Assembly (NCBI RefSeq): GCF_056746865.1
Contig: NZ_CM163382.1
Length of the DNA: 64,000 bases
Strand: one strand, 5' to 3'
The position numbers and the translations under genes are program-made. The notes beneath the pieces were generated by a model, which did not search any database, had not been told where the DNA came from, and saw only the letters and a list, made by a program, of their open reading frames with translations. Shown here one piece after another: positions 3,571 through 21,991 of this stretch. Each line of letters starts with the position of its first letter. Position 1 is the stretch's first letter.

Positions 3571-4092
3571 TCAGGCTCCGGATGACTTTCGTTTTTTCTC
3601 CAGCTCCTGGCGCTTTTTTTCCAGGAGATGCTCCTGCATGGCTTTCAGATATGCATTTTCTGCGCGAAGATAACGCAGCTCATTCTTCATCTCTTCCGGC
3701 GTCATGTTTGCCTCGTTTTCATGGGTATCATCAGAACGGGTCATACTTTTCTCCTTCCTGCGCCTGATAAAGGCCTCATTACCAGATTTGCGGTAGCCTT
3801 TTATCCAGTTTTTAACCGTGTTGTGGCTGGGAATGTTAAACCGGGCAGCTACCCGGGGTAGAGACTCAGAATGCCCGAGAGCATAAAGAACCACGCAAAG
3901 TTTATCTTCAGGAGAATAGCTACGCTTGTGTCTGCAATCCAGTGCCCGAGGACCGTGAAGAAGAAAAAGATTAATCCAGTGTGAGAGGCTGGTGTGAGAA
4001 AGTTGAAAGAGTTTTGCCGTAGAAATGATGCCTGCATGACCAGCCAGGTAATGATTTACAGCGGCAAGTTTTACTTCAAATGAATGTTTCAT
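3571..4092 (-). CDS. insJ: IS150 transposase OrfA (InsJ), HTH DNA-binding protein, 173 aa
   Basis: Translation MKHSFEVKLAAVNHYLAGHAGIISTAKLFQLSHTSLSHWINLF...; ATG at complement 4090..4092 (ORF track starts 3 codons earlier at GTG). Confidence 0.9.
   Translation of the reverse strand: MKHSFEVKLAAVNHYLAGHAGIISTAKLFQLSHTSLSHWINLFLLHGPRALDCRHKRSYSPEDKLCVVLYALGHSESLPRVAARFNIPSHNTVKNWIKGYRKSGNEAFIRRRKEKSMTRSDDTHENEANMTPEEMKNELRYLRAENAYLKAMQEHLLEKKRQELEKKRKSSGA
3613..3620 (-). other. Programmed -1 ribosomal frameshift slippery heptamer A-AAA-AAG of IS150
   Basis: cttttttt on + strand = AAAAAAAG on coding strand near 3' end of insJ; IS150 frameshifting is established knowledge. Confidence 0.6.
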
Positions 4093-4143
4093 AAACTGCA
4101 CCTTCAGATGTCAGATTATGTCCAACATTTGGGGTGCAGTTCA

Positions 4144-4165
4144 TGGCGCGTCTTATCAGGCCTAC
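4144..4165. repeat. Right half of REP unit split by IS150
   Basis: tggcgcgtcttatcaggcctac; see 2694..2711. Confidence 0.6.
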
Positions 4166-4221
4166 GTCGAGTCGAACCTCCCTGCCCCCGGAGGTTCTCA
4201 TCCTCATGAGCTACAAATGCA

Positions 4222-4252
4222 AAAAAGCCTGCTCGCTGAGCAGGCATTTCGA
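4222..4252 (-). terminator. Rho-independent terminator of proK
   Basis: aaaaaagcctgctcgctgagcaggcatttcg: GC stem-loop followed by U-run on minus strand immediately 3' of tRNA. Confidence 0.75.
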
Positions 4253-4255
4253 ATT

Positions 4256-4332
<77 letters not shown>

Positions 4333-4423
4333 AATGCGGGGCGCATCTTACTGCGCAGATACGCCCTCGTCAATCCCTTAATAGCAAAATGCCTTTTGAT
4401 CGGCGAGAAAGTCAGCAGGCCTC

Positions 4424-21130: not shown

Positions 21131-21160
21131 AAGCCCGGTCACATTGGACTGACCGGGCTT
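21131..21160. terminator. Bidirectional terminator between convergent wecH and yiaA
   Basis: agcccggtcacattggactgaccgggct hairpin. Confidence 0.7.
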
Positions 21161-21167
21161 ATGTGAA

Positions 21168-21608
21168 TTATTCGCTGTATTCTTCCTGGGTAATCTGTGT
21201 TTCTTTTGGTGGGTTTATTCCGGCATCACGAATATTCTTCTGCACCGCTACTGCACCAAACAAGCTTAAGAAGAAAGCCAGTCCATAAAAACCTTTCTCG
21301 CTGAGTAATAATGTCGCATTCCACAGACCTACCATCAGTAATGCAACAGAGATAATAAAGACAGTCAGGCAGGTCATATAATAAATGGAAGTGGTCGGTA
21401 TGCCTTCATACTTGTCCCGAACGGTCTTTTGATAAGACGCAGCAGAAAACAGTCCTAATACCAGTACGGCAAAATAATATCCTTTTTCATTTAACTGCAT
21501 CTCTGCATTCCATAGCCCTAACAGATAGGTAACGATACCACCAACGAGAGCTATCCATGACACAATACTAAAGGCCGGTGAATAGGTTGATATTTTGTTG
21601 TCCATCAC
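21168..21608 (-). CDS. yiaA: Inner membrane protein YiaA (YiaAB two-repeat family)
   Basis: Translation [46 protein letters not shown]... Confidence 0.9.
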
Positions 21609-21649
21609 AGTATTCCTTCATTCCTGAATGTGTAAGAGCTTTATGTTGC

Positions 21650-21991
21650 TCATGCCGAGCGAAACAAACGCATTTGACCAAACAAGCAGACAAAAAAGGC
21701 GATGGGGTAGATCACCATTTCATAAGCATTGATAGGTGCATTTAAAACACCGATAAACAAGAGACCGATAGTGATTAACGCGACTAACTGGCAGATGTGG
21801 GTAAAAAAATTATCCAGTTGCCCGAGTTTTTCTGCGCGAAGATATGCATAGTTACCAAAAGTTGCTGTCATTAACACGCCAAGAAAATAGCCTTTTCCAC
21901 TTAACAATGGGCATGAGATCCATAGCCCAAGCAGATAAACCAGCGCCCCGACAACAAATAATAGTTTTGCCACAGTTTTTGAGGTTTTCAT
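21650..21991 (-). CDS. yiaB: Inner membrane protein YiaB (paralogue of YiaA), 113 aa
   Basis: Translation MKTSKTVAKLLFVVGALVYLLGLWISCPLLSGKGYFLGVL...; ORF track extends to 22033 with 14 extra codons. Confidence 0.85.
   Translation of the reverse strand: MKTSKTVAKLLFVVGALVYLLGLWISCPLLSGKGYFLGVLMTATFGNYAYLRAEKLGQLDNFFTHICQLVALITIGLLFIGVLNAPINAYEMVIYPIAFFVCLFGQMRLFRSA

Follow-up and report, generated by a model that had tools for sequence, protein, structure and literature searches.

We consider it very probable that YiaA and YiaB of Escherichia coli are paralogous four-helix proteins, each composed of two membrane hairpins in the same orientation, with a history of two successive duplications; a mechanism for these proteins can be offered only at low confidence. 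Module alignments and trees indicate that the hairpin doubling came first and is ancient, and that copying of the complete four-helix gene followed. A preliminary description of this DNA had proposed that a small membrane hairpin was duplicated in two rounds, a proposal supported by the collinear alignment of the two proteins and the module tree, both described below.

According to the alignments, the tree and the synteny, an ancestral two-helix hairpin doubled in-frame before the family radiated, giving the four-helix YiaA type, whose two hairpins share one motif across the short turn, GLWNA-x3-L-x-EKG(Y/F)Y, and another where the second helix ends, QKxxRD. Long afterwards, a copy of the entire gene arose beside the original in the Escherichia/Salmonella/Citrobacter/Klebsiella lineage, yielding the arrangement xylB-yiaB-yiaA-wecH. 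Divergence was then asymmetric, YiaA keeping both motifs and YiaB evolving about three times faster, fixing a hairpin-1 motif of its own (SCPLLSGKGYF) and losing the hairpin-2 motif in Escherichia. Both genes have stayed under purifying selection, with either still losable.

The yiaB-yiaA locus and its families

The analysed window is a stretch of 64,000 nucleotides (contig NZ_CM163382.1, assembly GCF_056746865.1), in which positions 21168-21991 run exactly from the yiaA stop to the yiaB start, both genes lying on the minus strand. yiaB is upstream of yiaA, head-to-tail on the same strand with a spacer of 44 nt, and on the E. coli chromosome the pair is flanked by wecH (plus strand, convergent with yiaA) and xylB (minus strand, upstream of yiaB). 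The gene coordinates and head-to-tail layout given in the preliminary description agree with the open reading frames and the RefSeq annotation between wecH and xylB, and both peptides that it quoted were located in YiaA, at residues 20-57 and 90-121. The annotated yiaA ATG at 21605 is preceded by AAGGAA; in open reading frame calling, the frame is extendable by one codon to a GTG at 21608. The features of the locus are as follows.

21131-21160, no strand assigned: putative shared terminator, a GC-rich hairpin of 11 pairs followed by a T-run on the minus strand (consensus match)
21168-21605, minus strand: yiaA, 145 aa, ATG at 21605, stop at 21168-21170 (open reading frame and RefSeq annotation, inner membrane protein YiaA)
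21225-21392, minus strand: YiaA hairpin module 2 (A2), residues 72-127; module HMM 5.3e-30; GLWNA...SEKGFY...QKNIRD
21411-21581, minus strand: YiaA hairpin module 1 (A1), residues 9-65; module HMM 7.5e-33; GLWNA-x3-L-x-EKGYY and QKxxRD, family conservation profile
21650-21991, minus strand: yiaB, 113 aa, ATG at 21991 (open reading frame and RefSeq annotation, inner membrane protein YiaB)
21668-21808, minus strand: YiaB hairpin module 2 (B2), residues 62-108; module HMM 1.3e-15; loop motif degenerate in Escherichia, GVLNAPINAYEMVIY
21698-21716, minus strand: weak terminator-like hairpin and T-run inside the 3' end of yiaB, ~50 nt before the stop
21839-21973, minus strand: YiaB hairpin module 1 (B1), residues 7-51; module HMM 1.1e-15; motif GLW-x-SCPLLSGKGYFLGVL

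The hairpin at 21131-21160 sits between the convergent stops of wecH and yiaA and, judged from its consensus match, is probably a terminator shared by the two genes. The terminator-like site within yiaB is probably a chance consensus match. The yiaA-yiaB segment was found in 5425 of 5426 complete E. coli genomes, under the same gene names in RefSeq, and the genome search returned no plasmid matches to it; the locus is therefore chromosomal core of E. coli.

These are known E. coli inner-membrane genes and the type locus of Pfam PF05360 and TCDB 9.B.44. PF05360, 'yiaA/B two helix domain', matches YiaA in 2 stretches (135.5 bits, E 7e-40) and YiaB in 2 stretches (42.6 bits, E 7.1e-11), both above the gathering cut-off of 26.6 bits. 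Each protein thus carries two copies of the domain, and each copy comprises two transmembrane helices and a short conserved linker, as judged from the AlphaFold2 models, hydropathy peaks and motif. The NCBIfam models separate the paralogues: YiaA scores 197.8 bits on NF008482 (curated cut-off 150) and YiaB 168.9 bits on NF008492 (curated cut-off 130), whereas on each other's model they score far lower (75.9 and 45.8 bits). YiaA and YiaB belong to these catalogued families and differ from them in no matter of kind. Both the two-hairpin architecture and the hairpin duplication are already known from Pfam PF05360, TCDB 9.B.44 and the transporter literature, in which the 2-TMS to 4-TMS duplication of the YiaAB family is cited as a textbook case (PMC3061005).

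Predicted structure and topology

AlphaFold2 models built from family alignments predict a four-helix bundle for each protein. The YiaA model (pLDDT 91, pTM 0.81) has helices at residues 10-33, 38-66, 73-96 and 101-130, and the YiaB model (pLDDT 83) at residues 5-26, 33-55, 61-84 and 89-112. Turns within each hairpin are 4-6 residues long in these models, and hydropathy peaks agree with four helices. Conservation across the family concentrates in two spots per hairpin, GLWNA-x3-L-x-EKG(Y/F)Y spanning the turn and QKxxRD ending the second helix.

The distribution of charge suggests an N-in/C-in topology, in which the conserved turns would face the periplasm: among 68 homologues, Lys plus Arg counts are 3.15 in loop 2 and 3.57 in the C-terminal tail, versus 1.26 and 0.99 in loops 1 and 3. 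The global topology study of Daley et al. from 2005 reportedly also placed the C terminus inside. With this topology, the two four-residue turns and their Asn/Glu/Lys/Tyr motif would lie at the periplasmic membrane surface and the QKxxRD caps at the cytoplasmic surface, and the two parallel repeats would be related by a pseudo-twofold axis normal to the membrane. Such an axis is typical of oligomerising bundle, ring and pore proteins, whereas alternating-access carriers use inverted repeats.

Distribution and loss of the two genes

The order xylB-yiaB-yiaA-wecH is common to E. coli, a Citrobacter sp., Salmonella and K. pneumoniae, whereas Yersinia has a single yiaA at another locus, between metJ and rpmE; on the basis of this shared synteny, we date the gene duplication to the Escherichia/Salmonella/Citrobacter/Klebsiella group. 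Outside the enteric group no conserved gene neighbour was found, the distant homologues standing alone in unrelated contexts. Searches with YiaA returned at least 7900 relatives; those with YiaB returned 139, all at least 42% identical and every one with an enteric genus as its source name.

Even close relatives do not all have the tandem pair. yiaA is missing from the locus in E. albertii, E. fergusonii, C. freundii and K. oxytoca (loci L001-L004, around 4001-4400; the statement concerns this locus only), and in these four species yiaB lies directly against wecH, with gaps of at most about 65 bp and an overlap of yiaB and wecH in C. freundii, too tight to accommodate yiaA. The paralogue lost from the locus is the conservative one and the paralogue kept is the fast-evolving yiaB, an unexpected direction. 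In E. albertii (L001:1-3744), the genes upstream of yiaB encode an aminotransferase and a glucosaminidase-domain protein and are not xylAB.

A different loss was found in one Klebsiella assembly (L018:3001-3255, compared with L007:5001-5447), where yiaA keeps its native xylB-yiaB-yiaA-wecH context but has shrunk to 84 aa. A clean in-frame deletion of 189 nt between the CTGTGGAATGCC (LWNA) repeats has joined the first helix of hairpin 1 to the second helix of hairpin 2, in a gene otherwise identical to K. pneumoniae yiaA. It is a natural reversal of the hairpin duplication. Natural one-hairpin members of the family were also sought among 1.84 billion proteins; nearly all one-module matches proved to be frameshifted or contig-end fragments, and the sole clean case is this secondary deletion.

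Insertion sequences recur at the locus in E. coli (L008:615-1312; L009:569-2205; L017:2501-3327). IS1 occupies the wecH-yiaA spacer, IS5 splits yiaA in one strain, and in another IS1 replaces yiaB together with the 5' part of yiaA. Strains in which insertion sequences have disrupted or deleted the genes show that yiaA and yiaB are dispensable. Many 'partial' YiaA and YiaB entries in the databases end at contig breaks of ~35 kb, which fits assembly breaks induced by insertion sequences.

These patterns bear on whether YiaA and YiaB are obligate partners in one hetero-oligomeric complex, a relationship that would explain their kept adjacency. Adjacent same-strand paralogues conserved in four genera are what such a complex would lead one to expect, and the degenerate second hairpin of YiaB could fit an asymmetric subunit. 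Each gene, however, occurs without the other, which makes an obligate heteromer unlikely: yiaB lacks an adjacent yiaA in the four species named above, most of the family, Yersinia included, has YiaA alone, and IS5 disrupts yiaA alone in one strain. The two genes have also been treated as separate transcription units (PMC10127797).

Asymmetric divergence of YiaB

Since dS is saturated between genera, dN alone was compared at that distance. When E. coli is compared with Citrobacter or Salmonella, yiaB has a dN of 0.33-0.35, against 0.10-0.12 for yiaA, 0.094 for xylB and 0.10-0.12 for wecH; YiaB thus changes its amino acids about three times faster than YiaA. Among E. coli strains, dN/dS lies at 0.03-0.12 for yiaB and does not exceed 0.10 for yiaA, and both genes are under purifying selection.

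An alignment of 18 YiaB orthologues contains 29 invariant columns, among them the YiaB-specific hairpin-1 block GLW-x-SCPLLSGKGYFLGVL. In hairpin 2, the Trp and the E-K/E-R pair are mostly kept in Citrobacter, Salmonella and Klebsiella (GVWNAP....EK/ER..Y); E. coli, E. albertii and E. fergusonii have GV(L/R)NAPINAYEMVIY, with loss of the Trp and the Lys-Gly.

The faster amino-acid change, narrow taxonomic range, many truncated database entries, Escherichia hairpin-2 motif loss and removal by IS1 in one E. coli strain are all features that yiaB would show if it were a functionless copy decaying into a pseudogene. We nevertheless regard decay as very unlikely, given the low dN/dS within E. coli and a dN far below dS between species, the invariant columns that include the SCPLLSGKGYF block, a reading frame preserved intact in almost every one of more than 5300 E. 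coli genomes, and the retention of yiaB in four species that lack yiaA at the locus. In our account, YiaB would instead be a sub- or neo-functionalised copy able to act without YiaA.

A separate observation concerns yiaA in UTI89 (L014:1701-2138). Its synonymous divergence from the gene in this strain is 0.336, about three times that of wecH (0.127) and xylB (0.116) and twice that of yiaB (0.153) in the same comparison, a hint that the UTI89 lineage may carry an allele that is old or was imported.

Internal repeats and the order of the duplications

To compare the hairpins directly, the proteins were split into N- and C-terminal halves (A1, A2, B1 and B2), Smith-Waterman scores were set against 2000 composition-preserving shuffles, and profiles built from 68 YiaA-type and 18 YiaB-type sequences were compared with hhalign. 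The six pairs gave the following values.

A1-A2: Smith-Waterman 102, z 17.0; hhalign probability 99.8%, E 1e-30
A2-B2: Smith-Waterman 79, z 11.6; hhalign probability 98.1%
A1-B1: Smith-Waterman 77, z 10.2; hhalign probability 98.5%
A2-B1: Smith-Waterman 61, z 6.7; hhalign probability 93.8%
A1-B2: Smith-Waterman 24, z 0.4; hhalign probability 95.1%
B1-B2: Smith-Waterman 22, z -0.2; hhalign probability 3.3%

The internal repeat of YiaA is beyond doubt: shuffled A1-A2 pairs score 24.2 +/- 4.6, and 0 of 2000 reach 102. As a stricter control, the modules were compared with 289 windows from 8 other multi-helix membrane open reading frames of the 64-kb window, where the top score was 51. Direct similarity between B1 and B2 is at background level both pairwise and profile to profile. 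The halves of YiaB are counted as repeats because B1 matches A1, B2 matches A2, and both match PF05360 and the module HMM; by these alignments their homology is transitive only, through YiaA or the Pfam model. The claim that both proteins contain two module copies therefore stands on direct evidence for YiaA (z = 17, E 1e-30), while the YiaB pair goes unseen directly (z = -0.2, 3.3%); likewise, the formal self-alignment that had been suggested as a check reveals a significant internal repeat in YiaA and none in YiaB alone. The module length of roughly 45 aa given earlier was an underestimate, as the unit recurs after 63 codons (189 nt) in YiaA and after about 56 codons in YiaB, and the Pfam model spans 53 aa. 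At the DNA level, similarity between the yiaA repeats survives only over ~19 nt around the LWNA codons, as a residual repeat at 21316-21334 and 21505-21523, 189 nt apart.

A caution attaches to searches with a single module. One 1095-aa protein (P0332) with 11 near-identical plant PPR-type repeats matched the 60-aa YiaA module in 11 'stretches' at E 1e-13; we rejected it as a family member because the match rests solely on 'IVSW..LIGG', multiplied by repetition. False positives of this type are a hazard in such searches.

The alignment of YiaA with YiaB runs collinearly through both hairpins (32% identity, E 6e-13). For the module phylogeny that the preliminary description had suggested as a check, we gathered 152 modules. 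They belong to 76 non-redundant two-module proteins, which two word-indexed searches and an exhaustive search across 1.84 billion representatives had yielded. From a module-HMM alignment of 57 columns we built bootstrapped neighbour-joining trees, in which the long YiaB branches could be misplaced. N- and C-terminal modules split almost cleanly (75/76, with 1 stray). All 300 bootstraps recover B1 as monophyletic, and 298 of 300 do so for B2; B1 falls among the A1 modules in 187 of 200 and B2 among the A2 modules in 181 of 200, and a B1+B2 clade never appears in 300 bootstraps of these neighbour-joining trees. The phylogeny thus bears out the earlier proposal, with N- and C-terminal modules separate, B1 with A1 and B2 with A2. 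Because B1 nests with A1 and B2 with A2, and B1 and B2 never come together, the hairpin doubled a single time, early in the family, before the gene was copied.

The opposite order, in which the gene was copied first and each copy then doubled its hairpin independently to give parallel internal repeats, draws on the raw scores: A1 is closer to A2 (102) than to B1 (77), and A2 is closer to A1 than to B2 (79), as independent and more recent doublings would predict. We consider this order extremely improbable. The higher A1-A2 score is explained by the threefold faster protein evolution of YiaB, B1-B2 similarity at background is the opposite of the trace that a recent doubling would leave, and the nesting of B1 and B2 with their YiaA counterparts, the absent B1+B2 clade and the almost complete separation of N- and C-terminal modules across 76 proteins all conflict with it. 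The proposal that the apparent repeats reflect shared composition or periodicity of transmembrane helices rather than common descent has next to no probability left, and for YiaA and the YiaA-YiaB pairs it is already refuted. The four modules are all hydrophobic hairpins, and B1-B2 and A1-B2 do score at background, but A1-A2, A1-B1, A2-B2 and A2-B1 each beat every one of 2000 shuffles and the best of the 289 real transmembrane windows, their matches are centred on the polar motifs GLWNA, EKGY and QKxxRD and not on hydrophobic stretches, and a natural 189-nt in-frame deletion occurs between the two LWNA-coding repeats.

Possible function and significance

Neither structural, RNA, phage and defence family matches nor a conserved neighbour gave a pointer to function. 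Rfam returned no match on the locus, PADLOC returned none, and the single PHROGs match (E 0.013) is to a family of unknown function; a phage holin or anti-phage defence effector, considered for the small size and four transmembrane helices, was rejected on the PHROGs and PADLOC results and the location in the chromosomal core. The literature assigns no function to YiaA or YiaB and mentions them incidentally. Separate yiaB and yiaA transcription units are activated by mutant Lrp, with a binding peak (PMC10127797), and a SoxS ChIP site lies at Salmonella yiaB (PMC10268841). yiaB was among 65 first-round clones of an alanine-export screen and dropped out in round two (PMC10299036), and a silver-sensitivity screen also gave a hit (PMC6071238).

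Our best guess, held at low confidence and by analogy, is that these may be small oligomeric membrane proteins whose conserved polar belt on the periplasmic side would bind a lipid headgroup or an ion. We favour an oligomerising bundle since the repeats are parallel and would give a pseudo-twofold axis as in ring and pore formers, unlike the inverted repeats of carriers. The c-subunits of F/V-type ATPases and the VIC channel family, listed beside YiaAB in the transporter literature (PMC3061005), followed the same route, an even-helix hairpin duplicated in-frame to give parallel repeats and a pseudo-twofold axis, and the c-subunits also oligomerise into rings. No sequence relationship of YiaAB to either was detected. 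YiaAB lacks a conserved carboxylate in mid-membrane; the polar residues that it does conserve lie at the turn and the helix ends. The resemblance is an analogy for guessing at mechanism and not a sign of family membership.

To the catalogued picture the present analysis adds which duplication came first and roughly how old each is, the threefold difference in rate, the loss of the motif from the second hairpin of Escherichia YiaB and the lineage-specific loss of yiaA. It is of modest value as a clean, well-dated case of two successive duplications and asymmetric divergence in a tiny membrane protein, and matters little beyond book-keeping: existing catalogues already cover the genes, the domain and the doubling of the hairpin. 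It also recalls that a family found in essentially all E. coli is still without an assigned function.

A further reading, which we think improbable, is that the pair is a natural experiment in breaking pseudo-symmetry. It is prompted by Escherichia YiaB, which has one intact, re-specialised hairpin and one without the loop motif, is under purifying selection and can outlive YiaA, and by the Klebsiella isolate whose yiaA is reduced to one hairpin. Should a working bundle be able to form from two single hairpins, and should YiaB have acquired a new ligand or partner, the family would offer a compact model of how membrane proteins are built and rebuilt from hairpins, and work of this kind might also uncover a biochemical role, perhaps ion or lipid binding at the periplasmic face.
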